46,310 bases of DNA from a phage. The position numbers and the translations under genes are program-made. The DNA lies in assembly GCA_012455605.1 (NCBI GenBank), contig GCA_012455605.1_3618.2; one strand, 5' to 3'. Positions 1,930 through 22,032 of the stretch are shown piece after piece (positions within the stretch are counted from its first letter, which is position 1; every line of letters begins with the position of its first letter). The notes beneath the pieces are model-generated. The model saw only the letters and a program-made list of their open reading frames with translations. It made no database searches and was not told where the DNA came from.

Positions 1930-2598
1930 ATGGCTGTAGCTTATCCTACAATACCAATTCCAGATCTTGAAGATGCAGAAACAGTCCTGAGTGATGACTT
2001 CTTGGTTGTCAACCAGACTGATGGGACAAGAAAGGCTAAGATTGATGATGTTGTCAACGATCTCAGCATTACTAAAATAGTCTATTTCACAGAGGGTGGT
2101 TATCTTAAGAGCAAGAAGGACTTTGCTTATGATCCAGAAACTAAGCGCTACTACACGTGGAACGGGGATTATCCTAAAATAATCCTCCCAGACTCCACTG
2201 TAGAGGGTGCTGGGGGTGTGTCTGCAAATGCCTGGTCTGTTTTTGGTGAGCTTGCTGCAACTTCTTCTGGCAGAATAGTTGATTACGGATCTATAGGTGG
2301 TCAGCTTGATATGGATCTTGAAGTTGCAGATACCTTTAAGGTTCGACTAACTTCAAATACCACAATCTCTTTTGAAAATCAAACAGAAGGTCTTGAAGGG
2401 GTGGCGAGAACTATAACCGTATGCATTACTCAGACCTCTGGCGGCAACAAAGTCTATTGGCCGGGTAATGTTAAATGGTCCTACGGAAGAGATCCTATCC
2501 TAACATTTACAGCTGGTGCAACAGACATTTTCAAGTTGGAAACCTACGACAACGGGTTAACTTGGTACGGGGCACTGATTATCGCAGGAGCTATCTAA
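1930..2598 (+). CDS. Tail fibre/adaptor protein with conserved N-terminal anchor domain
   Basis: RBS taaggagaaatc then ATG. First ~100 aa (LEDAETVLSDDFLVVNQTDGTRKAKIDDVV...FTEGGYL...DFAY) are homologous to the N-terminus of the 5233 fibre. Short (222 aa), immediately followed by gene 2600. Confidence 0.55.
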   Translation: MAVAYPTIPIPDLEDAETVLSDDFLVVNQTDGTRKAKIDDVVNDLSITKIVYFTEGGYLKSKKDFAYDPETKRYYTWNGDYPKIILPDSTVEGAGGVSANAWSVFGELAATSSGRIVDYGSIGGQLDMDLEVADTFKVRLTSNTTISFENQTEGLEGVARTITVCITQTSGGNKVYWPGNVKWSYGRDPILTFTAGATDIFKLETYDNGLTWYGALIIAGAI

Positions 2599-2599
2599 G

Positions 2600-5197
2600 A
2601 TGCGTATTCAACATAACATTGATAACGTATTTCAGATGATTGAGGGGCACAGGAAGTGCCTCGATAACAACACAGGTATTACCAACACCCCTACACAAAA
2701 TAAGCTAGTAAACCCTGATGGTCTTATAGCTGCAGGGTGGGCAGGTAATAAGATAAATAATGATTGGGCAATGCATGAGTCCCAAGCTGTGTTGATTCTG
2801 GGATACATTGAAGCATACAGGGCATCGAAAAGCGATTTCTATCTGGATAGGGCAAAAGATGCTTGGGAAGCTTATAATAGTCATCTTCTGGGTGCATATG
2901 CAGTAGAAAGTAAAATGCAAAGATTGTCCCACTACCCTCTATCCACAGATGGGGTTCCATCACATGGTGGGTTTAAAGATGTGGTGGTGTCTTTTACCAA
3001 TGGTAGAGGAAAAATTCCAGCTGGATCTCCGACATGGGGAGAATACCTGGACAAGGCATTCCAAGCGTATAACGGTGTGTTAGGAAGAAACACTGTAGAC
3101 TCTGATGTTTACGGTGGCACAGATGCTAACCCAGATTGGACAACATCCGGATTAAGTTGGTGGGTCGAGTGGTACATAGCATGGGATGGTAACCGCTATT
3201 GGGCTAACGGTAGCATAGCCGACAGTGGTCATACGTCTGTAGAGTTCGGCACAATCCAATTACAAGATAAGGGTGTTACAGGCAGCCACAAGGTGACCTA
3301 TTGTGTAAGATTACCTCAAGAGCAGGGTGGATCGGTGATACCTGCAGGATCCCCTGTAATTGTAAATCCTATAAACGTGGTTGCAGATAATCAGGCCCCA
3401 GAGTTGGACGGGGAAGAAATGTGGTGTGACGCTTGTTATCAACTCTACACCTTGACAGGTGAGGAAAAGTATTACACCGCGTTTGAACAGTCTTACAACA
3501 AGTTGCTTAATTTCAGTGATATAAACGCCTACGACAAACTGTTTAGGAAGACCACGTTGATTAAGGCACCGTTTACAGATGGTACTTGTCTTGTTGCAGG
3601 AACAGTTCCTGTCATGAGCAGGGACAGTGACGGGTATATCAATTTTAGAATGAACGCACGCCAGCCTTGCGAAATAATTCAAAAAGGGACTACATACAAA
3701 ATAGGCAGAGATGCTGAAATTGTTATGAATTTCGGAGGAGAAGGGGTTCTGTTCCAGCCACATTTCATCCTTAATGATGGCAACAATAACAAAAAACAGT
3801 ACAGGATAGGGGTTCCTTTTGGAGGGGCAGAGGTAACAGAAATAGTCGCCAAGGTTACTGATTTCGTAGAGGTAGTTGGTAAAGACGGTAATCCGTATCT
3901 CTTACCTAAAGAGGAAAACATTGTCGTAAGCGGTGGCGCTAGTGTTAGTATGCAGTATGATACCGACATTTACAACCACTCTGACAACTTCACCCGTTGT
4001 AATATAGCAAGAGGTAAAGTAACTTTCAATTTTGGAAGAGAGATTTCTTTAAACTCAGTAACTTATCGATCAGATGATGAGATGGTAAGGGTCAAATTTC
4101 TTGACAAAGACAGGTGGTTATGGTATGCTGATCTATATGCCACTAATGGACAATGGGTAACAGAAACTCTTACTCTAGGAGATTTCAAACTAGATCCGAC
4201 ACAACCTCATCACACCGAAGAAGAGATTAAACCTTTCTTTGCTAATCCTAAGGGGCTCACCTCTGTAGATTTCAGCCTAAGCGACAGACAGATAGGTAAT
4301 GGCTTGTTTGATCTGTACTGCGTAAACACGCTGCCGCAGTTCTATATTGCAGATAGGGATGCTTATCTAATATGGTTTAGCGTATGGATGGCAAGCAAGA
4401 CAGAATCAACCGCTAAGGTTGGTGATTGCTATGTCAGAAACTACAAGCAAGGTGCATACAGGCACACACCGGGTGTGTTCCCTGCCGGAAAGGTGATAGA
4501 TAAGGAAAACTATCTCTTAGAGGAAAAGCCAAATTGGCCCTACCCTGGCATGCAATACCCAGCAGTATACTGCATGGGTGCAGAAAACATAGATCGCCAT
4601 AGATTGTCAAATACAATAGGCTTTCTGTATGACGCTCAAGTCTGGTATAATAATACATTTAAGACAGAGGGTCCAGTTGCCTCGCGTTATGTATGGCAGA
4701 GAGGTAATGAAGGGCTGACTGGTTGGTGGGAGATGGTAGATAACTCTAAGCTCCAGTCAAGATCTTTTGTTGCTGCGTGCCGCACAATCTATGAGCTCAA
4801 GAAACATAAAGAACCTGTTGATGAAAGATTATTCCTGTTCTGCCAGAAATGGGCATGGTTTCTCAACAGATTCCAGTCATCTCATTCAGGAAATCTGCCT
4901 ACAGACTTTAACACCTCTGGGGGATATTCTTATCAAGACAGAGGGGACAGGATGTGGGTGGTAGGTGAATGGCTTGCAGGTTGCTGCTGGCTAGGTCTGT
5001 GCGGGTATTCAGAGACAATACCTCAAATAGATATTGTTGTAGAAGCCTGTATGAAGCTACTGCAAAAGCACCACTTCATCAATGGGGATAATGTTTTAAA
5101 CGGCTGCTGGGCAGTTTCTGATCCGGTGGGCTATCACTCTGGCGAAATCCTTCGCGGTCTGGGCCTCTATGCTCAATACCGTGGATTGTACCTTTAA
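2600..5197 (+). CDS. Tail-associated large protein, possible polysaccharide-degrading enzyme (depolymerase-like)
   Basis: ATG 2 nt after stop of 1930 gene. 865 aa. N-terminal region (GWAGNKINNDWAMHESQAVLILGYIEAYRASKSDFYLDRAKDAWEAY) is reminiscent of alpha/alpha-barrel glycoside hydrolase/epimerase folds. Function is inference only. Confidence 0.4.
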   Translation: MRIQHNIDNVFQMIEGHRKCLDNNTGITNTPTQNKLVNPDGLIAAGWAGNKINNDWAMHESQAVLILGYIEAYRASKSDFYLDRAKDAWEAYNSHLLGAYAVESKMQRLSHYPLSTDGVPSHGGFKDVVVSFTNGRGKIPAGSPTWGEYLDKAFQAYNGVLGRNTVDSDVYGGTDANPDWTTSGLSWWVEWYIAWDGNRYWANGSIADSGHTSVEFGTIQLQDKGVTGSHKVTYCVRLPQEQGGSVIPAGSPVIVNPINVVADNQAPELDGEEMWCDACYQLYTLTGEEKYYTAFEQSYNKLLNFSDINAYDKLFRKTTLIKAPFTDGTCLVAGTVPVMSRDSDGYINFRMNARQPCEIIQKGTTYKIGRDAEIVMNFGGEGVLFQPHFILNDGNNNKKQYRIGVPFGGAEVTEIVAKVTDFVEVVGKDGNPYLLPKEENIVVSGGASVSMQYDTDIYNHSDNFTRCNIARGKVTFNFGREISLNSVTYRSDDEMVRVKFLDKDRWLWYADLYATNGQWVTETLTLGDFKLDPTQPHHTEEEIKPFFANPKGLTSVDFSLSDRQIGNGLFDLYCVNTLPQFYIADRDAYLIWFSVWMASKTESTAKVGDCYVRNYKQGAYRHTPGVFPAGKVIDKENYLLEEKPNWPYPGMQYPAVYCMGAENIDRHRLSNTIGFLYDAQVWYNNTFKTEGPVASRYVWQRGNEGLTGWWEMVDNSKLQSRSFVAACRTIYELKKHKEPVDERLFLFCQKWAWFLNRFQSSHSGNLPTDFNTSGGYSYQDRGDRMWVVGEWLAGCCWLGLCGYSETIPQIDIVVEACMKLLQKHHFINGDNVLNGCWAVSDPVGYHSGEILRGLGLYAQYRGLYL

Positions 5198-5202
5198 CAT
5201 AG

Positions 5203-5222
5203 GGGGCTGTTTGCCCCCTTTC
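5203..5222 (+). terminator. Putative intrinsic terminator/attenuator after gene 2600
   Basis: Hairpin GGGGGC-tgttt-GCCCCC followed by short TTT; overlaps RBS of next gene, so may be partial. Confidence 0.4.
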
Positions 5223-5232
5223 AGGAGAAAGA

Positions 5233-8200
5233 ATGGCTGATATTAAAGTTGTCAGAATTGAATCTCTTCCTGCCACTACCGCAGTGACAGAGGATGATTA
5301 CCTGGTTGTTCAACAACCAGACCTGACCCGTCGTGTAAAAATTGGCGATGTTGTCCATGTGGATGGGACTGTTTCTCATGTAATCTCCTTTAAGGAAGGT
5401 GGTAAGTTAAACGGCCCAATGGATTTTGCCTACTTCGAAGAGGAAGACCTCTACCTGCGTTGGAAAGGCGAATTTCCACACACTGTTCCTGCACTATCTT
5501 CACCGTACGCTGATGGTGGGATTACTGACGCTGCATGGATGGTATATACTGACCCGTCCTTAAGGGAGGAGTTGGAATCTACCATTGGCGCATCTATGAT
5601 CATGACAGCCGAAGGGCAGTCTGTCCAGGATGTAATGGATGTTACTGTTCAGACAGCTAACGATGCTAAAGCCCTTGCACAGCGTGTAGATTTTGGTACA
5701 GTGCACACTGTAGGTGATGTTATCCACCTTGATAACTTTGTTGGCCCTGCAGTTATTGAAGAGGGAAGAACCACCAACTATCCCTCCGTAGCAGCTGGTG
5801 AAAAATTTCTGAACGGTGTGGTATCTCGTCGTGATACTACAACTGTTGATGGTATTTTCCGTGGAGCTACCTCCGGAGCTATGTATACCATCGCAGTAAC
5901 CAACGGTGTAGCGACAACAAAAAGAATAGCACTTCGTGATGAATTTAAACGCCTGGAGGCAAACAACCCAACAAGAACAGTTATCCGTGCTGGAGATGAT
6001 TTAAACACGGCAGGGTACTTGCAGCTTGATGCAACAGGCCGTTGGGGTATGTGGAACCAACAAACAGCCTCGTGGCAACCTCTTGCTATAGAGCAAGGCG
6101 GTACAGGGGCCAGAGATGCCGCTGGAGTCCGTATCAATATCGGGGCTTTCTATAAGCAACGTGCAGCCCTTGAGCCAAATTTCAATATCAATAACTTGAC
6201 TGGTAATCAGGATGGTGTATACTACCAGCCGATGACTGCTTATGCAACTGAGGCAAATGGTTACCCTGCAGGTTCTGGTGCTGGTCACTTGATTGTTTGG
6301 CAGAACAATGCTAACGGCGGTACAGGTTGTCGTCAGGAATACTACCCATTCTCTAACGTAGATGTTTGGTATTTGAGAACCTATCAGGCCAACACAAACC
6401 AGTGGACTGCATGGCAGCCGATGGTCAGACCTCGTAACGATGATACCTTTAGAGCGCACATCGGTCTTGGTCCTAGAAATACCCCTACCTTCGGGCACAT
6501 TTACCTGTCTCAAAGTTCTGCTGATGTTAAGTCAGCCTCGGGTATTGTTAACGGGGACAAATACAGCGCTGACGGTGTCCTTGAGCATGGATATAGGATC
6601 TATTCTGAGGTAAGAAACGACAATAAGGCTTGGTTGACAATCCACCTGCATAAAGGTGCAAAAGGATCTGAAACTCACAGATATTTAGGTTTCCGCGAAG
6701 ACGGAGTATTAGACTGCCCTAAATACATGCAGGTTGGGGATCTCACTGGTCAGCTGACAAACTGGGGACTTGGAGAGTGGATCCGTAGTTCAGGGGCAGA
6801 AAGAGGCTTCTGGGGGTCCAAGAAAGCCGCCAAGATGGTTGTCTGGGATGGTGGGATGGACGAATCCGGTAACGGCACTCTGGAATGGGGTGTTTATAAC
6901 AACCGGAAGGCCAAGTGGGAACCTTTACCTCAAGCCGCAGGTGGCACTGGAGCTACAACTTTAGCAGATGCTCAGAATCTGTTCAAAGTTCCTATAGCAG
7001 CAGGTGTGAAAGACTTCTTAACACTGCCAAGAACCGCAGGGATGGAAGATGGGAAATACTACCCGATCATCGTTAGAACAGATCCGTACTATGCTCCAGC
7101 AACTGGTACTGATATTACCATAGTTACCAGATCGTCATCTGGAAATGACCCTATGAACTGTGCTACCTTACAGTGTCACTATAGAACTGGTGGTTGGACA
7201 GACAGAGGAGACTCTTTCTACGGGGTAGTAAATTTCTACCAGAATGAAAAAGCACTTCTTGGGATGGTTGCTCCAACAAGGGGTAAACAAGAATATGTTG
7301 CTTTCTATGCAGAGGCGCGTGCTTTCCCTGTCAGCATATACGCAAGTAGAAATGTTGTCGAGGTGTTTACCAGGGAGCAAGATTACCAGGTTGGCTCTGT
7401 AACAGACAATCAGGACGGTGTTAAGTTCGTTGCACCTCTCCAGTCAGCAGATTTAAATCTGGCTGTTCTCGGAGATAACAATACCAACACCAGACCTATT
7501 GTTGACTTCAAAGGTACCTCTGGGTTCTACACTGGCGGCGGCACACAGTGGCACTATATAGGCACTGCTGAACGCTATGCGATAATGAGCAAAATGAACA
7601 TGCCTAAAGTAGAGCTATGGGCTGACGGTTTTGACTATTTGTGCTACAGTGGTCCTAGAAAGGCGCTATTCTCTAACGCAGGATTCCAGTGTGCATCAGA
7701 TGGAACAGAGGATCTAACTAACGGCACGTTTACCTCTAAATGCGGTAATGGTGCTGGCCTTAAAGGTCAAGCAGAGTTCAGGTCTACTCCAGAGGCTGGT
7801 CAAGTTATTGTTCGAGATGTTGTGGGCACAGCTCATAGATTCTACAACTTCAATAAGGATGGTACTTTTTCAGCCCCAGGTGGTTTTGTATGTCATACTG
7901 GTGGAGACTGGAACAACCAGTTCGGGCCTAATAACCCGTCAAAAATAATGGCTGGTAATGTTAACGGTCCACAAGACACCATGGTTGTAGGAGGTTTATC
8001 TGTAGGATTCTCGGGAAACTACGCTTTCCAGATTGCTGGCAGACAAAGTAACTTATACACCAGGTCTATAGAAGGCGGTAATCACCACCCTTGGAATAAG
8101 GCTATGCAGCACAGGGGTCAGGGTCTCGGTACCTCAGACCTTGACACCTATAATGGGTTGTGGGAAGGCATTTACCATCAATCGGCAAATAATGATGCAA

Positions 8201-9045
8201 CATATGATCGTCATTATCCGGTAAATGAAGCTGGAACACTTATTGTGTTGCAGAATAACGCCAATAACGGTAATGGGTGTGTTCAAGAGTATATTACCTA
8301 TCACGGCGATAGATTTATACGTTATGGTAATATGGTGAGACAAACCTTCACTTGGGGCCCGTGGACCCAAACAGGTGGCAATGGTGTTAGCTTCAGATAT
8401 GGAGGAACAACTCCCGAAGGGGAAATACCGACCTCAGAGTTAAAGGTATATATTTCTGGAAGCCATGTTACTAATAACGGTGGCAACATGCCTGCGAATA
8501 GCGCTCATATGCACTATTGGGGCAACGGCAGCACAGGGGATCGCCCAAACGTGTTAGAGTTTAAGGTTCTTGACGAGTCTCAAGCAAATTGGGTATGGCA
8601 TTGCGGTACCTTGCCGGATAAATCAAGATATCTTTCTGTAAACGGTGCTGTGAATTGCACATCTGTCAATCAGAGTTCTGACAGAGACCTGAAAGACAAC
8701 ATATCTGTTATTCCTGATGCGTTAGAAGCTATCCGGAAGATGAAGGGTTATACCTACACTTTAAAAGAGAATGGTATGCCTTATGCAGGTGTTATAGCAC
8801 AAGAAGTGCTTGAAGCACTGCCGGAAGCAGTTAGCTCTTTCGTGCAAAGAAAGGAAATCCCAAACCCTGATCAAGATGGAACTCCTTTGATAACAGAGGA
8901 AAGATTCTACAGCGTGGATTACGCAGCCGTAACAGGCTTGCTTGTCCAGGTTTGCAGAGAACAGGACGATAAAATAACCGCCCTTGAGGAGCAGGTTAAA
9001 AAATTGACAGAGGTTGTTACTGGGTTGCAAGAGAAACTGAAGTAA
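5233..9045 (+). CDS. Long tail fibre protein with C-terminal intramolecular chaperone (peptidase S74-like) domain
   Basis: 1270 aa. N-terminal anchor homologous to gene 1930. Internal fibre-repeat motifs (WxPLxxxxGGTGA...A..N). C-terminus SDRDLKDNISVIPDALEAIRKMKGYTYTLKENG...AQEVLEALPE...coiled coil matches the Ser-Lys autoproteolytic chaperone pattern of endosialidase/T5 L-shaped fibres. Confidence 0.7.
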   Translation: MADIKVVRIESLPATTAVTEDDYLVVQQPDLTRRVKIGDVVHVDGTVSHVISFKEGGKLNGPMDFAYFEEEDLYLRWKGEFPHTVPALSSPYADGGITDAAWMVYTDPSLREELESTIGASMIMTAEGQSVQDVMDVTVQTANDAKALAQRVDFGTVHTVGDVIHLDNFVGPAVIEEGRTTNYPSVAAGEKFLNGVVSRRDTTTVDGIFRGATSGAMYTIAVTNGVATTKRIALRDEFKRLEANNPTRTVIRAGDDLNTAGYLQLDATGRWGMWNQQTASWQPLAIEQGGTGARDAAGVRINIGAFYKQRAALEPNFNINNLTGNQDGVYYQPMTAYATEANGYPAGSGAGHLIVWQNNANGGTGCRQEYYPFSNVDVWYLRTYQANTNQWTAWQPMVRPRNDDTFRAHIGLGPRNTPTFGHIYLSQSSADVKSASGIVNGDKYSADGVLEHGYRIYSEVRNDNKAWLTIHLHKGAKGSETHRYLGFREDGVLDCPKYMQVGDLTGQLTNWGLGEWIRSSGAERGFWGSKKAAKMVVWDGGMDESGNGTLEWGVYNNRKAKWEPLPQAAGGTGATTLADAQNLFKVPIAAGVKDFLTLPRTAGMEDGKYYPIIVRTDPYYAPATGTDITIVTRSSSGNDPMNCATLQCHYRTGGWTDRGDSFYGVVNFYQNEKALLGMVAPTRGKQEYVAFYAEARAFPVSIYASRNVVEVFTREQDYQVGSVTDNQDGVKFVAPLQSADLNLAVLGDNNTNTRPIVDFKGTSGFYTGGGTQWHYIGTAERYAIMSKMNMPKVELWADGFDYLCYSGPRKALFSNAGFQCASDGTEDLTNGTFTSKCGNGAGLKGQAEFRSTPEAGQVIVRDVVGTAHRFYNFNKDGTFSAPGGFVCHTGGDWNNQFGPNNPSKIMAGNVNGPQDTMVVGGLSVGFSGNYAFQIAGRQSNLYTRSIEGGNHHPWNKAMQHRGQGLGTSDLDTYNGLWEGIYHQSANNDATYDRHYPVNEAGTLIVLQNNANNGNGCVQEYITYHGDRFIRYGNMVRQTFTWGPWTQTGGNGVSFRYGGTTPEGEIPTSELKVYISGSHVTNNGGNMPANSAHMHYWGNGSTGDRPNVLEFKVLDESQANWVWHCGTLPDKSRYLSVNGAVNCTSVNQSSDRDLKDNISVIPDALEAIRKMKGYTYTLKENGMPYAGVIAQEVLEALPEAVSSFVQRKEIPNPDQDGTPLITEERFYSVDYAAVTGLLVQVCREQDDKITALEEQVKKLTEVVTGLQEKLK

Positions 9046-9052
9046 CTGTTTT

Positions 9053-9084
9053 GCCCTCGCTGCTTCGGCGGGGGCTTTTTGTTT
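9053..9084 (+). terminator. Intrinsic terminator
   Basis: GC-rich hairpin gccctcgc-tgcttcg-gcgggggc followed by TTTTTGTTTG. Confidence 0.7.
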
Positions 9085-9087
9085 GTA

Positions 9088-9116
9088 TTGCGTATTAACT
9101 TAAAATCTGGTAAAAT
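9088..9116 (+). promoter_or_regulatory. sigma70-like promoter with extended -10 (TTGCGT-17-TGg-TAAAAT)
   Basis: TGGTAAAAT extended -10 at 9108-9116, weak -35 TTGCGT 17 nt upstream; lies between terminator and RBS of gene 9148; motif recurs at 14599 and 20930. Confidence 0.5.
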
Positions 9117-9147
9117 AACTATCATGATTGTTTAACCAGGAGGCACA

Positions 9148-9738
9148 ATGTTTTTATGGGAAAGGCCTAGATACCTTCCAGATATTAGATTGGAGCTGCT
9201 GGCAGATATTGTTACGTTTAAAAGTCCGTTTACAGGTAAAGCGCAAAAAGTAACCTATGCCACGCCCAACTGGAAAGGCACTTTAACGGTTTCCAATATC
9301 AGCGAGTCACAGTTGTTAGAGCTTAAAAGCTTTGTTGATCAGGTGTATAAAGATGGAAACATCTTTCTTATTAAAACTTACGGTCACTCAGTTACAGCTA
9401 ATGAGCCAATCGCCCTTGGGCCTACTGGTAACGACGATTTTTTGAAGACGGTTGGGTGGGAGCCAAACAGAGACATAGCCAGAGCCGGAGATAAAATATC
9501 TGTCAATGATGAATTGAAAGTGGTAACAGCTCCAGTGCGTAGCGATGGTGTTGGGTCTGCTGTTATAAGCATATCTCCAAGACTTAGAAAACCTATTGCC
9601 GCAGGGGACACTATGAAGATAATAACTCAATCTCCGAAGGGCAGGTTTCATATTAGAGATATTTATAAAATTAAGCAAAAAGTCGATGCTATGCAAAAAG
9701 GTGATAATATAGTTATCAACTTCTTTGAGGATTTCTAA
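9148..9738 (+). CDS. Tail tip/baseplate-associated protein, unassigned
   Basis: ATG with AGGAGG RBS; first gene of a four-gene translationally coupled unit ending in the J-like fibre. No family recognised by eye. Confidence 0.4.
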   Translation: MFLWERPRYLPDIRLELLADIVTFKSPFTGKAQKVTYATPNWKGTLTVSNISESQLLELKSFVDQVYKDGNIFLIKTYGHSVTANEPIALGPTGNDDFLKTVGWEPNRDIARAGDKISVNDELKVVTAPVRSDGVGSAVISISPRLRKPIAAGDTMKIITQSPKGRFHIRDIYKIKQKVDAMQKGDNIVINFFEDF

Positions 9739-9739
9739 G

Positions 9740-10291
9740 ATGATTAGAGCGCCATTAGATAATTTATTTCTTGAAAAACTGGAGCTTGATGGTGTTGAGA
9801 TCTTGATTGCTGCAAAACTGGAGCTCCCGACAGGAACTGTCAGGGTGTGCTCAGGTACTGGTGTTGTAGTAATTGAGGGACAACATTTTATAGGGATAGG
9901 TGGATCAGCAACATTAACTGCTGTGTCTGAGAAAGATGCCACCAACTTCGGATCTGTGGTAGCAACATTAAACGGGTTTGATCCTAAGTATGTGGGTGAT
10001 CTGCTGAAGACGGAGTATTCTGGTTGTCGTGCCACGTTGTACATTACCGCTATGGAGAATGGTCTGCCTGTTACAACTAATGGCTTGTTTGACGGACTTA
10101 TAACAGATATGGCTATTCAGACGGGTGAGAATAGTGCTTTGTCCATATCCATCTCTTCCATCTTCAACAGTTGGTTAAGAGGTTTTCCTTATCGGTACAC
10201 GGAGGAAAGCCACAGCTCAAGAAACGATAATGACAGATTTTTTAAATATGTGGATCAGGTGGCGAGCCGCCCGATCATTTGGGAGGTTTAA
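9740..10291 (+). CDS. Tail tip assembly protein, unassigned
   Basis: Track start 9725 is TTG; ATG at 9740 with GAGGA upstream chosen. Stop overlaps next start (TAATG at 10289-10293). Confidence 0.4.
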   Translation: MIRAPLDNLFLEKLELDGVEILIAAKLELPTGTVRVCSGTGVVVIEGQHFIGIGGSATLTAVSEKDATNFGSVVATLNGFDPKYVGDLLKTEYSGCRATLYITAMENGLPVTTNGLFDGLITDMAIQTGENSALSISISSIFNSWLRGFPYRYTEESHSSRNDNDRFFKYVDQVASRPIIWEV

Positions 10292-10716
10292 TGAGCACGC
10301 ATCCTCGTCTAGTGGACTGGCAAGAAAGGTTGTGGAAAGTATTTGACGAAGAGGCAACCATACCTTTTGAATGGGGATTCCACGATTGTTGCACTTTTGC
10401 GGCTAAGTGTGTTGATGCCCAATACGGAACAGATTTTCTTTCTAACTTCGAAGGAACGTATAAAACAGAGTTGGAAAGCAAGAGATGGTGCATGCTCCGT
10501 TTCAAAACCACACACCTGCCTACTATTTTTGATCTCTTTATGACTCGGCTGGATACTCCTAAACAGGTTCAGCGTGGAGATATTGTCATTTTCGAAGGTC
10601 TGAACGGCCTCACCGCTGGTGTGTTCTGGAACAACCAGATTTGGGCGAAAGGTGATAAAGGGGTCTTTATGTTCGACATGAAAGATTCTATCGTTGTTGA
10701 TGTCTGGAGGTATTAA
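10291..10716 (+). CDS. Tail assembly protein, lambda gpK-like NlpC/P60-type cysteine peptidase domain
   Basis: ATG at 10291 (track TTG start at 10279 rejected), RBS GGGAGG. Motifs GFHDCCTF and GDIVIFEG...LTAGVFWNNQIWAKG resemble the C-terminal domain of lambda K. Immediately upstream of the J-like gene with TAATG overlap. Confidence 0.5.
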   Translation: MSTHPRLVDWQERLWKVFDEEATIPFEWGFHDCCTFAAKCVDAQYGTDFLSNFEGTYKTELESKRWCMLRFKTTHLPTIFDLFMTRLDTPKQVQRGDIVIFEGLNGLTAGVFWNNQIWAKGDKGVFMFDMKDSIVVDVWRY

Positions 10717-13700
10717 TGCCAATTGCAATGATTGATAACATCGTTGCTTCTGCAAGATCTTCAAGTTATGACTGGAACGCATCCAAGGCAGCTCTGGCTG
10801 ACAGCCTGAACACTGTGACCACCAGAACTTTGGATAAGATTTTTGAGGGCAACAAATCTTACAGAAGTCAGCAAGATAGACAAAAGCTTCTCAGATCTTC
10901 TGCTGCACCTTGCTCTGTAGTGTATGGAAAGACACGCACATCTGGATTGCTTGCGTTTTTGGAGCAGGATAGCGACAGAACCCTCCATTGTGCTATTGTT
11001 CTTGCCAATCACCCTCTGGAAGGTATAGAAGATATACTTATCGACGGTAATCCTATTTCCTCGTATGGAGATCTGGTATCGTGGGAGCTACATAACGACA
11101 GAAAAACATCTGATCCTTTCATGGGTACACACTGCCCATCATGGTCACCTGACATGATAGGTAGAGGGATCAGTTGGCTACGTGCCAGCTTCAGGTTTGA
11201 CCCTAACAAGTTTCCTTTTGGGTTGCCAAACGTTACACTCGTCAAGATTGGTAAAAAATGCTATGATCCTCGTATCAGTAAAGAGGTGTACACCAATAAC
11301 GCTGCCTTGGTGATCCTAGACTATTTAAGAACGTACCTTAAATGTCCTGACGAAACCATCAACTGGGAGTCCTTCAAGGAGGCTGCCAACATATGCGACG
11401 AGGCGGTAAAAAACGCAGACGGAACCAGTGAGCGCCGTTACACCATTAACGGTGAGTTTGACATGGATGAGGCCCCAGCAAGTATTATGGCAGAAATGCT
11501 GAAAGCTTGCGGTGCAGATCTTAGTTATGTTGCTGGTAAGTATGGTTTGCTGGTTGGTGCATACTATGGCCCAGCAACAATGACACTTAGTGAGGACTGT
11601 GTCTGTGGTGAGGTTAAGATCTATCCGGAAGCCTCATTTGACAAAAGATCCAACACAATAACTGGCAGATTCACTAGCCCGACCAAAGGGTATTCTGAAA
11701 CAGATTTTCCATCAGTGTTTGTCCCAGAGTGGATAGAGAAGGATGGAGAAAGAAAGATAATCGATATAGATTATCGCTTTGTTACCAGTCCTTATCAAGC
11801 TCAGCGTGTTTCTGCAATCTTCCTAAGACGTGCTAGAGCTGGCAGGATTATTGAAGTCACCTGCAATATGCGAGGTTTTAAATTTAAGCCTGGCCGTTAT
11901 GTTACAATGGACCTCCCAAGTATTGGTATCGTGGGCCAAGAAATGAGGGTTCTTGAATGGGAGTTCACCAAAAAGGGCGGTGTCAAGGTAAAACTTCGTC
12001 AAGATGCTAAAGAGTGGAATGATGCCACAGGGCAACTTCCGGATTCCGGCGATGTAGATATTCCGATATCCCCGTCCGGTGTAGCTCAGCCGCAAAACTT
12101 CAGATACTCCGTTCTCCAAGCTGGGGAAGTAACTCACGGTGTTTTGGCCTGGGACAACGTTGGGACTTACGCTCAAAATATTGTGCAGGTAAGAAAGAAC
12201 GGAGAGATTGTTTGGACAGCACAGACAGTTGAGCAGTTTGTCCGTGTTGAAGGTCTGACTAAAGGTTCCTACACAGCCACTGTTGTTGCAACATCTTATA
12301 AAGGTGGTGTATCTCCAGAAGCGTATTGTGAGTTTAACATTCAGGCACCTGAAGCTCCGGTTTCTGTAGAGGTTAAGCAAGGATACTTTGCTATCACCTT
12401 GATTCCGCATAGTAGGGATTTAGCAAGTGTTAGCACCCAGTATGACTTTTGGACATCCGGTATGACAAGGTTGCCCGACACCAGTGATGCAACCGTTACT
12501 TCAAACGCCACCCGTATGGGTGTTGGTTCAACTTGGACATCTGAAGGTCTGCAGAACGATAAGGTTTATTATTGGTATATTCGAACCACAAACGCTTTTG
12601 GTAGTTCTCAGTTTGTAGAATGCGCTGCACGCTGCTACACCTCTATTGAGGATTTGATGCCTCAGATAGATGCTGAATTCAAAAAGACAGAAACTTATAA
12701 AGAGTTGATGAGCACTTTGGATTCCTCTATTGAAGAGGTTGAAAATCGTGTCACAGAACTTAACAGGTACATGGATGGTAGGGTAGATGAGGCATTCCAG
12801 CAACTTGGAGACAGAATAGGTGCGGTAGTTACAGAGACAACTCAGAAGTTCGAGGATGTCAATGGCAATATCACAGCGCTGGATAGGAAACTTGTTGCTG
12901 CACAGAACAAGTTCACCAACGATCTGAACACTGAAAGTGGAAGATTGGCATCCCTGATTGAGACAACCAATAAAGCAACTACTGATCTTCTGAACAAAAA
13001 GACAGAGGCTTTAGATGAGAAATTGGTTGCCGCCAAAGGTGAGCTGGTAGAGCAGATAGAAGGAGTTGAGAGCGGGTATTTAGCCGGAGATAAAACTCTA
13101 GATGGTAAGATTAATACTCAGAGAACAGAACTTGACGCAAGCATCTTGAGCACTAACCAGGCCACTGTGGATCTTTTGAACAGGACATCTGAAACTCTGG
13201 ATCAAAAGATTAGTCAGACAAACGCGACGGTATCTAAAAACTATACCACCCTTGACGGCAAGATAACTACCGCAAAAACTGACCTCAACACCTTGATTGC
13301 CAATACCAACAAGGCCACCACTGACTTGTTGAATCAGAAAACATCTGCACTGTCAGAGCAGATAACTTCTGCACGTGGGGAGATTTCTACCAACAAGCAA
13401 GCGATTGATGCTTTGGATGGAAAACTGACCTCCACAAAAACAGCGCTGGATGCTACAATTTCCGATACCAATAAAGCCACTGTGGACCTTATCAACGGCA
13501 CAGCGTCAGCTATTCGTCAAGAACTTGCTGTTGCTAAGCAGGAGATCATTGATGATGTTGGGGATGTGTCTGAGATCAGGGCTGCAGTAGCTACAACATC
13601 TAAGGCTGTAACCGACTTAGAGGGTAAAGTAAATGCTCAATGGGGCACAAAAATACAGGTAGACTCCGCAGGGAATAAATATGTTGCAGGTATTCAGTTG

Positions 13701-14555
13701 GGGATGGAAGGGTCTGGAGGCCAAGTTCAATCCTACTTCATGGTTAGCGCAAACAATTTTGCGGTATACAACCCTGGCAATGGAACAGCAACCCTTGCTT
13801 TCGCAATCAAGAACAACCAAGCGTTCTTGAAAGACGCTTTTATAGAGAATGGCACGATCTCCTCTGCCAAGATTGCACAAGAAATTTCGTCAAACAACTA
13901 CGATGGCAACGGGTACCATAAATACGGTTGGTATATTAACAAGAACGGGCACGCCCAATTTATGGATGTGTGGGTGAAAGGCAACATCAACGCCAGTTCT
14001 GGTAACTTCACAGGGGCAGTTAACGCCACTAGTGGTACCTTCCGTGGGGATGTTTATGCCAATAATGGTAGCTTTAGAGGCACCATAGATGCAACCGGAG
14101 GTACCTTCCGTGGTCGTGTAGAAGCTTCTGTTATCCGCGCTAACCAGTTCGAAGGTGCAATTGTTGCACACAGGACTTACGGAGATTGTGCTCCAGTATA
14201 TAACTCCCAGCAAAGGGTTTGCCGTTGGAGGTGGAGATACGTAGATAACGTTTCAGGTCAGGGTAAGAACGTAACATTCTTCTTTAAACTGAATGGTACT
14301 CTTGCCAGCTCCCAGCTTAACGTTTGGATAGCCGGACATCAAATCCTTGCAGGTAAGAAGTACGGAAACGACAACAACGGCATGTGTGCGGTAGGGATAA
14401 CGGGTCTTGGTGAACAAACCATAGATATTGTTGTTGAAATCTACACACCATGGTCAACGTCTTCTGTAACAGGGGTCGCAATATCCTGTCCTACTGTTGT
14501 GGTAAGCCGTTCTAACTCTAGTTTCCAAGGACCTTGGAACGAGTCTCACGACTAA
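10716..14555 (+). CDS. Tip attachment / central tail fibre protein, lambda gpJ-like
   Basis: 1279 aa. Multiple segments co-linear with lambda J as recalled: NNAALVILDYL (vs NNMAWCLWDML), FN3-like region, GYFAITLIPH / YDFWTS / YYWYIRTTNAFGSSQFVE, KYVAGIQLGMEG...QSYFMVSANNFAVYNPGNG, C-terminal GxFxG repeats (SGNFTGAVNATSGTFRGDVYANNGSFRGTIDATGGTFRG). Confidence 0.8.
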   Translation: MPIAMIDNIVASARSSSYDWNASKAALADSLNTVTTRTLDKIFEGNKSYRSQQDRQKLLRSSAAPCSVVYGKTRTSGLLAFLEQDSDRTLHCAIVLANHPLEGIEDILIDGNPISSYGDLVSWELHNDRKTSDPFMGTHCPSWSPDMIGRGISWLRASFRFDPNKFPFGLPNVTLVKIGKKCYDPRISKEVYTNNAALVILDYLRTYLKCPDETINWESFKEAANICDEAVKNADGTSERRYTINGEFDMDEAPASIMAEMLKACGADLSYVAGKYGLLVGAYYGPATMTLSEDCVCGEVKIYPEASFDKRSNTITGRFTSPTKGYSETDFPSVFVPEWIEKDGERKIIDIDYRFVTSPYQAQRVSAIFLRRARAGRIIEVTCNMRGFKFKPGRYVTMDLPSIGIVGQEMRVLEWEFTKKGGVKVKLRQDAKEWNDATGQLPDSGDVDIPISPSGVAQPQNFRYSVLQAGEVTHGVLAWDNVGTYAQNIVQVRKNGEIVWTAQTVEQFVRVEGLTKGSYTATVVATSYKGGVSPEAYCEFNIQAPEAPVSVEVKQGYFAITLIPHSRDLASVSTQYDFWTSGMTRLPDTSDATVTSNATRMGVGSTWTSEGLQNDKVYYWYIRTTNAFGSSQFVECAARCYTSIEDLMPQIDAEFKKTETYKELMSTLDSSIEEVENRVTELNRYMDGRVDEAFQQLGDRIGAVVTETTQKFEDVNGNITALDRKLVAAQNKFTNDLNTESGRLASLIETTNKATTDLLNKKTEALDEKLVAAKGELVEQIEGVESGYLAGDKTLDGKINTQRTELDASILSTNQATVDLLNRTSETLDQKISQTNATVSKNYTTLDGKITTAKTDLNTLIANTNKATTDLLNQKTSALSEQITSARGEISTNKQAIDALDGKLTSTKTALDATISDTNKATVDLINGTASAIRQELAVAKQEIIDDVGDVSEIRAAVATTSKAVTDLEGKVNAQWGTKIQVDSAGNKYVAGIQLGMEGSGGQVQSYFMVSANNFAVYNPGNGTATLAFAIKNNQAFLKDAFIENGTISSAKIAQEISSNNYDGNGYHKYGWYINKNGHAQFMDVWVKGNINASSGNFTGAVNATSGTFRGDVYANNGSFRGTIDATGGTFRGRVEASVIRANQFEGAIVAHRTYGDCAPVYNSQQRVCRWRWRYVDNVSGQGKNVTFFFKLNGTLASSQLNVWIAGHQILAGKKYGNDNNGMCAVGITGLGEQTIDIVVEIYTPWSTSSVTGVAISCPTVVVSRSNSSFQGPWNESHD
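12948..13640 (+). repeat. In-frame tandem repeats (~55-60 aa unit, 4-5 copies) encoding a coiled-coil stalk inside the J-like gene
   Basis: Repeating peptide pattern xTNKATTDLLNxKTxALxExIxxAxxEIxxxxxxLDGKIxxxKTxLD (ETTNKATTDLLNKKTEAL / STNQATVDLLNRTSETL / NTNKATTDLLNQKTSAL / DTNKATVDLINGTASAI). Confidence 0.6.
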
Positions 14556-18933: not shown

Positions 18934-19974
18934 ATGTCAAAACCTAGTTTTCCATTAGAGATTTGGGCAGAGGAGGATCAGGTTCTGCCTAACACCCACA
19001 GACAGAACAGGCTACGCCCGATTGATGATTTGTGGAGAAAAGGTTGGGATCTTGGTCAAAAGCCCTCATGTGAAGAACTTAACTATATTTTCAATATGCT
19101 CGGAACTTGGGCAAAATACATTGCTGACGAGCAGATCCCCGCTCAAGAAGGCCGTTATCTGGTACGTGATAATAACTTGAGTGATCTTTTGAACATTCCT
19201 GTTGCCCGTAGAAACCTTGGGATTATTACTAAGGAAGAGGCAGACGCCAGGTATGTAAAAGTTACAGGTGATACAATGACAGGCCCATTGGGTTTGCAAC
19301 GTATCAACTTTAAAGCTGCCGAGACAGATAAGGCTTGGATAGAGACAACTATTGGCCCAGATAAGACAACTCTCGACTTTGGGTTAAGTGATAATACTGG
19401 GGCGTTTGATGATGGTGGCACATCTACGGTAGATGCGTTTCGTTGGAGATTCCAGCCAACTCAGCCGGATATTAATCCAGAGTTCACTTTGATGTACCTT
19501 AACGCGATCACGGCTAACCGTGCGCTGTTGAAAGTGGTAGGCAATGTTGAAGTTGTCGATAACATGAGGTGCAATAACCTTACTATCAGCAATACAGCAA
19601 CATTCACCAACTGTAATGTGGCTAGTCAGTTGACGGCTGGGTCGGTATATGTTAATGGTGGTGCAAGTTGTGACAGTATGGTTGTAAGAAGCCAGCACTG
19701 TGTTGTCGGTAACAGAAATGTGGTTCGCTCTGTGAACGGAGTGACGGCTAACGGTAACGGTGATGTAACGATCACTATCCCGCAGACAGGTGTGCAAGAC
19801 ATCAGAATCGGTGCAAGACTTGTGGACGGAGTTTCTGAATCTCCAATCCGCAACGGCTACGTTGTCACAGGCTGGCATTTCGGTGACAAAAAAGAGATGC
19901 GTGGTTCAACCTACTGGGCAGGACCTTTACAAAAACTTGTAAATGGTCAATGGATCACTGTTAATTATGCATAG
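18934..19974 (+). CDS. Tail fibre protein (paralog A)
   Basis: 346 aa. N-terminus MSKPSFPLEIWAEEDQVLPN...KGWDLGQKP and C-terminus YWAGPLQKLVNGQWITVNYA conserved with gene 20989; fibre motif VARRNLGI; followed by a Tfa gene. Confidence 0.65.
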   Translation: MSKPSFPLEIWAEEDQVLPNTHRQNRLRPIDDLWRKGWDLGQKPSCEELNYIFNMLGTWAKYIADEQIPAQEGRYLVRDNNLSDLLNIPVARRNLGIITKEEADARYVKVTGDTMTGPLGLQRINFKAAETDKAWIETTIGPDKTTLDFGLSDNTGAFDDGGTSTVDAFRWRFQPTQPDINPEFTLMYLNAITANRALLKVVGNVEVVDNMRCNNLTISNTATFTNCNVASQLTAGSVYVNGGASCDSMVVRSQHCVVGNRNVVRSVNGVTANGNGDVTITIPQTGVQDIRIGARLVDGVSESPIRNGYVVTGWHFGDKKEMRGSTYWAGPLQKLVNGQWITVNYA

Positions 19975-19988
19975 ATCGGAGGACTAGC

Positions 19989-20573
19989 ATGAAAATACTT
20001 CAAGAGTTTAAACTTTACCAACCGGGATCTGGCGAATACCACGCCAACAAGGAAACCAAGGAGCTGACCCCTCAAGAGGTTGAGGATTACACCGCATACA
20101 CTGGGTATTTTTTACGTAATGATGATGGCGATTGGTATGTGCAGTCACGAACATTACGACAAGAAAATCCGGGTTGTATCTTCCTACTTGTTGACGAGAA
20201 GGGAATTCTTAAGACATCTACAGAAGAACCTGATGCCTTATGGCCTGCTCCAGGTCTTCGTGTGGTTATCGCCAAAAAAGAAGAGGTACCAGAAAACATT
20301 ATGCTTCACCACGACGCTTTGCGTTTAGTTGGTGATGAATTTGTCACAGATAATGAATTCTTTGTTCAACAGGCAGAGGGTGTCATAGAGACAGAACTTG
20401 CTTGGGCTACTGCTAGAATTGGTGCCTATCAAGACATGATTGACCTTGAATATGATCTTACTGATGACCAGAAACGTAACATCAGAGATTTGAAAATGTA
20501 CAGGGTAAAACTTCTTGAAATAGATACATCTAAAGCCCCTGACATTTTCTTCCCGGAGCGACCTACCCTCTAA
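19989..20573 (+). CDS. Tail fibre assembly chaperone (Tfa / gpG-like)
   Basis: 194 aa directly after a fibre gene; C-terminal signature KMYRVKLLEIDTSKAPDIFFPERP matches the conserved Tfa motif (YR..L...D...AP.I.WP..P). Confidence 0.75.
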   Translation: MKILQEFKLYQPGSGEYHANKETKELTPQEVEDYTAYTGYFLRNDDGDWYVQSRTLRQENPGCIFLLVDEKGILKTSTEEPDALWPAPGLRVVIAKKEEVPENIMLHHDALRLVGDEFVTDNEFFVQQAEGVIETELAWATARIGAYQDMIDLEYDLTDDQKRNIRDLKMYRVKLLEIDTSKAPDIFFPERPTL

Positions 20574-20584
20574 GAGGAGGTGTT

Positions 20585-20899
20585 GTGGAGTTGGATTTGG
20601 CGGCATTGTACGGTATCTGCATGGGTACCGTTGTCCCGATCTGTGTATGGGCTTTCAACCAGTGGCACACCAAATGGAAAGGCATTTCCAAGAGGTTGGA
20701 TGAACTGGAGAAAGACCTCATCTTAGTGAAAAACAGTATGGTTACAAAAGATAAACTTGATTCCGTTATCGAGACCCGGTTAAGCAAGCTAGAGGCCGAT
20801 ATTAACGACCTTAAGCAGGATGTCAGGACAGATGTCTCCGGTATCCGAGCTGATGTACAAAAGATTTTGCACATGCTCGTAGAGCATAGTAAAAGGTAA
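20585..20899 (+). CDS. Small membrane protein with N-terminal TM helix and coiled-coil tail (holin/i-spanin-like or fibre accessory)
   Basis: GTG start 4 nt after AGGAGG. Hydrophobic LAALYGICMGTVVPICVWAF followed by charged heptad-like sequence (LDELEKDLILVKNS...LSKLEADINDLKQDV). Confidence 0.35.
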   Translation: MELDLAALYGICMGTVVPICVWAFNQWHTKWKGISKRLDELEKDLILVKNSMVTKDKLDSVIETRLSKLEADINDLKQDVRTDVSGIRADVQKILHMLVEHSKR

Positions 20900-20908
20900 A
20901 CAAAGGTC

Positions 20909-20940
20909 AGAACGGAAAGGACTCCGTTCTTGCATTTTGT
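20909..20940 (+). terminator. Intrinsic terminator
   Basis: 8-bp stem AGAACGGA-aaggac-TCCGTTCT followed by TGCATTTTGTTCT. Confidence 0.55.
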
Positions 20941-20958
20941 TCTCTAAAGTGTTAAAAT
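20930..20958 (+). promoter_or_regulatory. sigma70-like promoter with extended -10 (TTGCAT-17-TGt-TAAAAT)
   Basis: TGTTAAAAT at 20950-20958, -35-like TTGCAT 17 nt upstream, overlapping the terminator tail; about 30 nt before gene 20989. Confidence 0.45.
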
Positions 20959-20988
20959 AGTCCTAAGGAATTTTCTCAGGAGAACGCG

Positions 20989-22032
20989 ATGACTAAACCA
21001 GTTATCCCTCTTGATATTTGGGCCAATCAGGATGTTGTGCTTGAAAATACGGGAGAGTTGAATAAGTCTCAACCAAAAAAAGAAGAGAGATTGAAAGGTT
21101 GGGATATGACCCAAAGAATGGCATGTGAAGTTGTTAACTTTGAACTTCACATGCTTTCTGCGTGGTTAAAGCATTTAACAGAAGATGTTGTCCCAGGATG
21201 GGATAATAGATTCTTAAGGGTCACTAATAATCTAGCAGACGTTCCAGACAAAGCTGCTGCACGTCAAGTTCTCAATGTATACTCACCTGAAGAAATGGAC
21301 GATCTATATGTTGACAAGTCTGGAGACATAATGACTCAGACTCAAACTTTAGGTCTTCAAAGAATCGAGTTTGCATCTGCGTCAACAGACAATGCGGCAA
21401 TATATACCACCATAACCTCAGACAAGACGATGATGGATTTCTGGATTATGGACAACATTGGTGGTGCTGACGGCACAGATCTTGATGATCCTTCTCACCA
21501 AATAGACGGGTTCCGTTGGAGATTTCAGCCTTCTGGTGGGCAGCCTGTGTTTTCGGCTATGAAGCTCAATGCTATAACTGCCAACCGTGCAAGACTGGCT
21601 ATCCAAGGAAATCTTGAATGCAACGATGCAAAAAGTTCCTCTGCAAATGCCAATGCGGTCACGATCCCGAGAGCCACTGTTAATGGACAACAATCTTGTG
21701 GAAGCGCTCAAATAGGTGGAAGAGTTGATTGTAACGATGAAACCGTCAGGGGACAATATGCAACAGTTGGTGGAAGAAACGTGGTCCGCAGGGTAAATGG
21801 TAACAGCGCAGACGGTAGTGGTAACCTTACTATCCCGATGCCTAGCAGAGGGGTTGATGATGTAAGGATAGCAAACCGTTTCAAAACCACCTACAGAGAG
21901 TCAAGAGTCTACCCTGGACATGTGATGTGCTCTGGTAACTACGCTTATAAACACCCTTATCAAGGTGATTACTGGACAGGTGCTATCCAAAAACTTGTAA
22001 ATGGTCAATGGATCACTATATCTTATGCTTAA
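20989..22032 (+). CDS. Tail fibre protein (paralog B)
   Basis: 347 aa. N-terminus MTKPVIPLDIWANQDVVLEN and C-terminus YWTGAIQKLVNGQWITISYA conserved with gene 18934; central region divergent; fibre motif DKAAARQVLNV. Confidence 0.65.
   Translation: MTKPVIPLDIWANQDVVLENTGELNKSQPKKEERLKGWDMTQRMACEVVNFELHMLSAWLKHLTEDVVPGWDNRFLRVTNNLADVPDKAAARQVLNVYSPEEMDDLYVDKSGDIMTQTQTLGLQRIEFASASTDNAAIYTTITSDKTMMDFWIMDNIGGADGTDLDDPSHQIDGFRWRFQPSGGQPVFSAMKLNAITANRARLAIQGNLECNDAKSSSANANAVTIPRATVNGQQSCGSAQIGGRVDCNDETVRGQYATVGGRNVVRRVNGNSADGSGNLTIPMPSRGVDDVRIANRFKTTYRESRVYPGHVMCSGNYAYKHPYQGDYWTGAIQKLVNGQWITISYA

Follow-up and report, generated by a model that had tools for sequence, protein, structure and literature searches.

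A predicted self-cleaving Peptidase_S74 chaperone domain at the C-terminus of the lateral tail fibre of an rV5-like phage

The C-terminal chaperones of phages K1F and GA-1 are the founding members of Peptidase S74; the cargo is a sialidase beta-propeller/tailspike in K1F and a neck appendage in GA-1. One member on a long lateral fibre is that of T5 pb1, in which Ser1264, activated by Lys1269, cleaves the chain when the triple beta-helix has formed correctly, with Arg1250 from the neighbouring chain aiding the cleavage and so coupling the cut to trimer folding; substitution S1264A abolishes cleavage, the released chaperone takes the catalytic Ser with it, and competition for the receptor is seen with the cleaved tip but not with the uncleaved form (PMC4690869). 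In phage S16, the processed tip of gp37 needs the separate adhesin gp38. A trimerisation-dependent self-cleaving domain of the same kind, the ICA of MyRF, is found in a eukaryotic membrane-bound transcription factor, where the functional product is the N-terminal part that cleavage sets free.

Fibres of the type considered here have also been described. The rV5 gp41 product was annotated as 'L-shaped tail fiber protein; PF13884.1 Peptidase_S74', with an HHpred match to 3GW6 and a coiled coil predicted by PCOILS (Kropinski 2013; PMC3606486), and pfam13884 was later placed at aa 1151–1200 of rV5 gp41, the gp41 of phage LL12 being without it (Piya 2020; PMC7229145). Among the Vequintavirinae fibres modelled by RBPseg, RBP_11 and RBP_57 carry a C-terminal S74 domain and RBP_10 of EmilHeitz carries a lectin-like head (RBPseg 2025; PMC12143355); RBP_11 was equated here with bas54_0027 of phage MaxBurger by matching description. 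In the same study, the peptidase domain was not seen as density in the cryo-EM map of the MaxBurger fibre, which bears S74 (PMC12143355); at 7–9 Å, this absence could be due to flexibility. The S74 domain of the rV5-gp41-type fibre is therefore already published, and it is an ordinary member of a well-characterised family; in the literature, no direct biochemical proof of cleavage was found for any Vequintavirus.

The DNA analysed in the present study, called the window below, is a stretch of 46,310 nucleotides (GenBank assembly GCA_012455605.1). The ORF listing gave one frame on its plus strand for a lateral tail fibre of 1270 aa (Table 1). The 'lateral tail fiber protein' gene of RudolfGeigy (Bas52) is 98.6% identical to it at the nucleotide level and 99.4% at the protein level, many further Vequintavirus genomes carry the gene at 95–98% nucleotide identity, and rV5 gp041 (1272 aa) lies at the same position in rV5; the tail fibre family phrog_6578 covers the full length of the protein, which gave no match as a whole against NCBIfam. 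Nucleotide identity and gene position thus identify the fibre as a gp41 ortholog and the phage, on these comparative grounds, as a Vequintavirus, i.e. an rV5-like myophage infecting E. coli. The gene of rV5 (YP_002003543) is the same gene at the same locus, Bas52 gp26 and Bas54 gp27 likewise being orthologs. Relative to the rV5 protein, the window fibre is 95% identical over aa 1–1047 and 98% over the chaperone, differing by point changes only, which in the chaperone are S1158A and A1250D. The MaxBurger ortholog (Bas54 gp27) is 94% identical overall, with one chaperone residue different.

Several observations on the gene stand apart from the question of its C-terminus. The fibre contains an internal duplication of knob-like segments at aa 318–373 and 969–1023 (window 6184–6351 and 8137–8301), which are 43% identical (E=2e-10) and both carry the pattern (G)xLIVxQNNANxGxGCxQEY; the NCBI title for some homologues is 'pyocin knob domain-containing S74 family peptidase'. 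GenBank records of the MG0656xx series deposited as 'Campylobacter phage' (18 to 25, host C. jejuni) are 95–98% identical to the window fibre gene and have Vequintavirus-sized genomes, and their names or host assignments appear doubtful. Two minus-strand ORFs over the chaperone region (8761–9030 and 8919–9125) were rejected as mechanical ORFs within a conserved coding region.

Table 1 Features of the lateral tail fibre gene and its 3' end in the window
Feature	Position (nt)	Strand	Basis
Lateral (L-shaped-type) tail fibre gene, rV5 gp41 / Bas52 gp26 ortholog	5233..9045	+	ORF listing, nucleotide identity, synteny, phrog_6578
Tail_spike_N (TSP1/Gp66-type) N-terminal anchor, aa 46–103	5368..5541	+	PF18668, E=1.1e-9, 38.7 bits, cut-off 25
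Variable distal tip, aa 1048–1148, predicted mature C-terminus, likely receptor-binding region	8374..8676	+	Allele identity
Intramolecular chaperone / Peptidase_S74, aa 1149–1270 (122 aa, 13.7 kDa)	8677..9042	+	Pfam, PDB profile, AlphaFold, Foldseek
Ser1149 (codon tct), predicted nucleophile, which would begin the released chaperone	8677..8679	+	Alignments A1, A2
Lys1154 (codon aaa) at Ser+5, predicted general base in the Ser-Lys dyad	8692..8694	+	Alignments A1, A2
C-terminal long helix, aa 1230–1269, predicted central trimeric coiled coil	8920..9039	+	DSSP helix 94–133, heptads
Terminator-like hairpin and T run, 8 nt past the fibre stop codon	9053..9085	+	Stem scan; Murica annotation

The S74 domain forms the extreme C-terminus of this full-length tail-fibre match. 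The core of Pfam PF13884 (Peptidase_S74) falls on aa 1149–1200 (nt 8677–8832), with E=1.6e-13 and 51.1 bits for the whole fibre and E=1e-14 and 55 bits for its last 148 aa (cut-off 22). A sequence-only reading of this DNA had placed an S74 chaperone over 8665–9045, a span that opens at Val1145 and takes in the whole stop codon, and had named a comparison with Peptidase_S74 as a way to check it; the clear Pfam match, the homologue profile and the chaperone-fold model described below all agree with that placement. The three motifs on which the reading relied are present in frame, SDRDLKDNI at aa 1149–1157, GYTYTLKENG at aa 1172–1181 and AQEVLEALPE at aa 1189–1198, as is the Ser-Lys dyad it proposed. 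The domain is the only one of its kind in the window, since a profile derived from alignment A1 gave no second S74 copy in any frame of the 46 kb.

The domain begins with the motif S-D-x3-K, made up of Ser1149, Asp1150 and Lys1154. When the last 170 aa were searched against a database, 78 homologues came back, almost every one with PF13884. Of the nine matches without the strict motif, some were fragments that start past it and others came from short contigs that were chimeric or frameshifted, or carried SDRREK, and the catalytic Ser, Asp and Lys are invariant among all full-length homologues collected. Because selection of homologues by the motif is circular for Ser and Lys, conservation was read from two unbiased alignments, A1 (35 sequences) and A2 (32 sequences), whose members range down to about 32% identity; neither shows any variation at Ser1149, Asp1150 and Lys1154, nor at G1186, A1189, Q1190, V1228, Y1230 and E1243.

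Comparison of the homologue profile with the PDB gave S16 gp37 (6F45, E=6e-23) as the best solved sequence match, followed by the MyRF ICA (7DC3, E=9.5e-13), the tail fibre 8JOV (E=7.9e-11) and the GA-1 neck-appendage chaperone (3GUD, E=5.9e-5). The SDxxxK motif was aligned in each of these matches, and the aligned SD is the very start of the 3GUD chain; Ser1149 falls on the Ser of SDRRIK in S16 gp37, on that of SDERHK in GA-1 and on the S-to-A position in MyRF. The similarity to S16 gp37 extends into the stretch before the Ser, which can be written G-A-[IV]-x-C-x-x-[VL]-N-x-S-S-D-R.

An AlphaFold monomer model of aa 1137–1270 (pLDDT 88.7) consists of a small alpha/beta body with a beta-hairpin, followed by a helix of 40 residues. 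This heptad-patterned helix agrees with the coiled coil that had been expected after AQEVLEALPE; between Ile1248 and Leu1269, each of its seven a/d positions holds I, L or V. Among the Foldseek matches to this model, those with E≤0.001 were only 7DC3, 3GW6 (the K1F endosialidase chaperone) and 3GUD. The MyRF domain was the top structural match (TM 0.53). The K1F and GA-1 chaperones share the predicted fold and the SDxxxK start with the window domain, but their identity in the structural alignment is only 15–22%, and the cargo here is a fibre tip. The monomer model of tip plus chaperone (311 aa) was poor (pLDDT 62, pTM 0.33), so its Foldseek matches, T5 pb1 4UW8 (E=4e-3, TM 0.21) and the R1 pyocin fibre (0.08), are unreliable for the fold of the tip.

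T5 pb1 is a parallel in architecture. It, too, is a long lateral fibre whose chain ends in a chaperone, 122–133 residues long in the two fibres, built from an alpha/beta body and a central coiled coil, and the spacing of its Ser1264/Lys1269 pair (Ser+5; PMC4690869) is that of Ser1149/Lys1154. Fibres of the Tequintavirus group align with aa 168–1265 of the window fibre at about 34% identity, rising to 55% over tip and chaperone. In contrast to pb1, the window fibre would be carried on a myovirus baseplate via its Tail_spike_N anchor, and its tip sequence is too unrelated for a PDB profile match, the match in fold (4UW8) being weak.

Taking these data together with the described systems, we consider it very probable that aa 1149–1270 are a self-cleaving S74 intramolecular chaperone and that a cut by Ser1149/Lys1154 would free 13.7 kDa and expose the tip. 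The present data show the domain, its dyad and their conservation, together with the predicted fold and the allelic pattern described below; that the domain acts as a chaperone, that the chain is cut and at which bond, and that the cut unmasks the binding site is inferred from T5 pb1, K1F endoNF and GA-1, and the fibre is assumed from its family to be a trimer. According to this scheme, three nascent chains would be put in register by the trimeric coiled coil and the alpha/beta body of the chaperone, which would nucleate folding of the intertwined distal tip. In the correctly folded trimer, Ser1149, activated by Lys1154, would then cleave the Ser1148–Ser1149 bond in every chain, releasing the chaperone and reducing the chain from 139.1 kDa to a mature form of 125.4 kDa, whose variable tip (aa ~1048–1148) would now be exposed for receptor binding. 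As the catalytic Ser departs with the chaperone in T5 pb1 and K1F, the mature chain is predicted by analogy to end at Ser1148 (nt 8674–8676).

The alternative that the S74 domain is merely a folding module that stays attached (protease inactive or cleavage dispensable), with a virion fibre ending at aa 1270, is very improbable: it could draw on the fact that gp41 is represented by just 8 peptides in the mass spectrometry of rV5 virions and every one of them lies upstream of the Ser, yet with only 8 peptides the chance of missing the last 9.6% of the chain is about 0.45, so that these peptides are uninformative, while the invariance of the catalytic S, D and K in full-length homologues makes a non-cleaving remnant unlikely, uncleaved T5 pb1 fails to compete for the receptor (PMC4690869), and the MaxBurger map lacks density for the domain (PMC12143355).

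Variation between alleles bears on the position of the receptor-binding part. The window fibre was compared with four other S74-bearing Vequintavirus alleles, those of rV5, Murica, EduardKellenberger and HeinrichReichert. The last three are 86–92% identical to it over aa 1–1047, but only 54–62% at aa 951–1050 and 28–30% at aa 1051–1100, whereas rV5 keeps 90–100% identity across the tip stretches and the chaperone. Between the S74-bearing alleles, the chaperone is 90–99% identical, against 44–62% at aa 1048–1148, and this contrast agrees with the earlier suggestion that the receptor-binding tip lies upstream of ~8677. The tip of EduardKellenberger is a mosaic, with 30% identity to the window at aa 1051–1100 and 98% at aa 1101–1150, which points to a recombination breakpoint that lies inside the tip and precedes the cleavage Ser by about 50 residues.

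In a second class of alleles (EmilHeitz, APECc02, nomine and others), aa 1–1047 are kept at about 92% identity and divergence sets in from aa 1047 onward. In EmilHeitz-type alleles, tip and chaperone are jointly replaced by a head of ~430 aa (phrog_1419) with a weak ConA-like lectin match and without S74; the EmilHeitz allele itself (MZ501062) lies at 2501–7269 of its locus, and its window equivalent is 8374–9147. Lambdoid and Drexlerviridae side fibres, for their part, share only aa ~1080–1270 with the window fibre, at 46–56% identity. The joint replacement in one group and the joint sharing in the other indicate that tip and chaperone form one mobile cassette, whose variable part stops at the cleavage Ser, and at the sequence level this supports a receptor-binding tip that ends at Ser1148.

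Directly behind the EmilHeitz-type head there is an extra ORF of 110 aa (phrog_1361), absent from the window, which gave no Pfam or PDB sequence match and may act as a chaperone in trans in place of the cis one. The cassette of lectin head and phrog_1361 ORF is present in EmilHeitz, LL12 and APECc02, and the S74-tip cassette in the window. The shaft of aa 1–1047 thus occurs with two interchangeable cassettes. That these are a natural matched pair in which cis and trans folding could be compared on one scaffold, the phrog_1361 ORF being a new trans chaperone, is a speculative reading that we consider unlikely on balance.

Upstream of Ser1149, the residues W1096, G1097, R1104, V1107, E1109, VNG1136–1138, C1142, N1146 and Q1147 are conserved. 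R1104 and E1109 are nearly invariant and D1129 is present in 22 of the 32 sequences. R1104 is a candidate for the Arg acting in trans, the 'folding sensor' described for T5 and K1F.

The fibre gene is situated within the known cluster of fibre and baseplate genes. Upstream of it lies the gene for an 865-aa fibre protein with glycosidase domains, and downstream follow genes for a Dit-like protein (phrog_1302), a DUF6950 protein and a J-like protein of 1279 aa. The hairpin between the fibre gene and the Dit-like gene (stem-loop 9053–9075) has a 10-pair stem, 8 of the pairs being G-C, and is followed by TTTTTGTTTG; in phage Murica, a terminator is annotated at the equivalent place.

This neighbourhood is relevant to a better surviving, though still improbable, alternative, according to which the chaperone is cleaved off but the mature end serves as a docking platform for a separate adhesin, like gp38 on gp37 of T2 and S16. 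Such an arrangement would suit the best solved sequence match, S16 gp37, whose processed tip bears gp38, and a gp38-like adhesin was in fact proposed for the MaxBurger ortholog by the RBPseg authors, although the MaxBurger map is without adhesin density (PMC12143355). Contrary to this expectation, the terminator directly follows the fibre gene and the next gene is the Dit-like one, no adhesin gene having been found near the fibre; the Pfam GP38 family is not represented among ten neighbouring fibre and baseplate proteins. A search of all six frames of the window for a gp38-type N-terminal or polyglycine motif was likewise negative, but is a weak test. Moreover, the strongest allelic variation is located in the last ~100–200 mature residues of the fibre itself. 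A tip that binds the receptor directly after release of the chaperone is thus the reading preferred here.

Other parts of the cluster deserve mention in their own right. Window 9148–14555 is a lambda/PY54-like siphovirus tail-tip module (Dit-like, DUF6950 and J-like) inside a myovirus baseplate cluster, its 1279-aa protein carrying Ig_J and Phage_Tail_Tip domains. In window 18934–22032, a trans-acting tail-fibre assembly protein, Caudo_TAP (19989–20573), lies between two short-fibre paralogs; with Caudo_TAP beside the short fibres and S74 on the lateral fibre, one virion would use both trans and cis chaperone strategies. The Tail_spike_N domain (CBA120 TSP1/Gp66-type) occurs also in an upstream 222-aa protein, the rV5 gp43 equivalent (window 1930–2598). 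Its presence in both this protein and the gp41-type fibre suggests a shared mode of baseplate docking or a branched fibre assembly.

As a widespread module in textbook form, the domain offers no new biology beyond annotation. What it does fix is the annotation itself: Ser1148 should be the end of the mature fibre, with the determinant of host range to be sought in the ~100–200 residues before it. Engineering or swapping of the tip must take the chaperone along. For expression of receptor-binding fragments, the S74 domain should be kept in the construct, from which it is predicted to remove itself.
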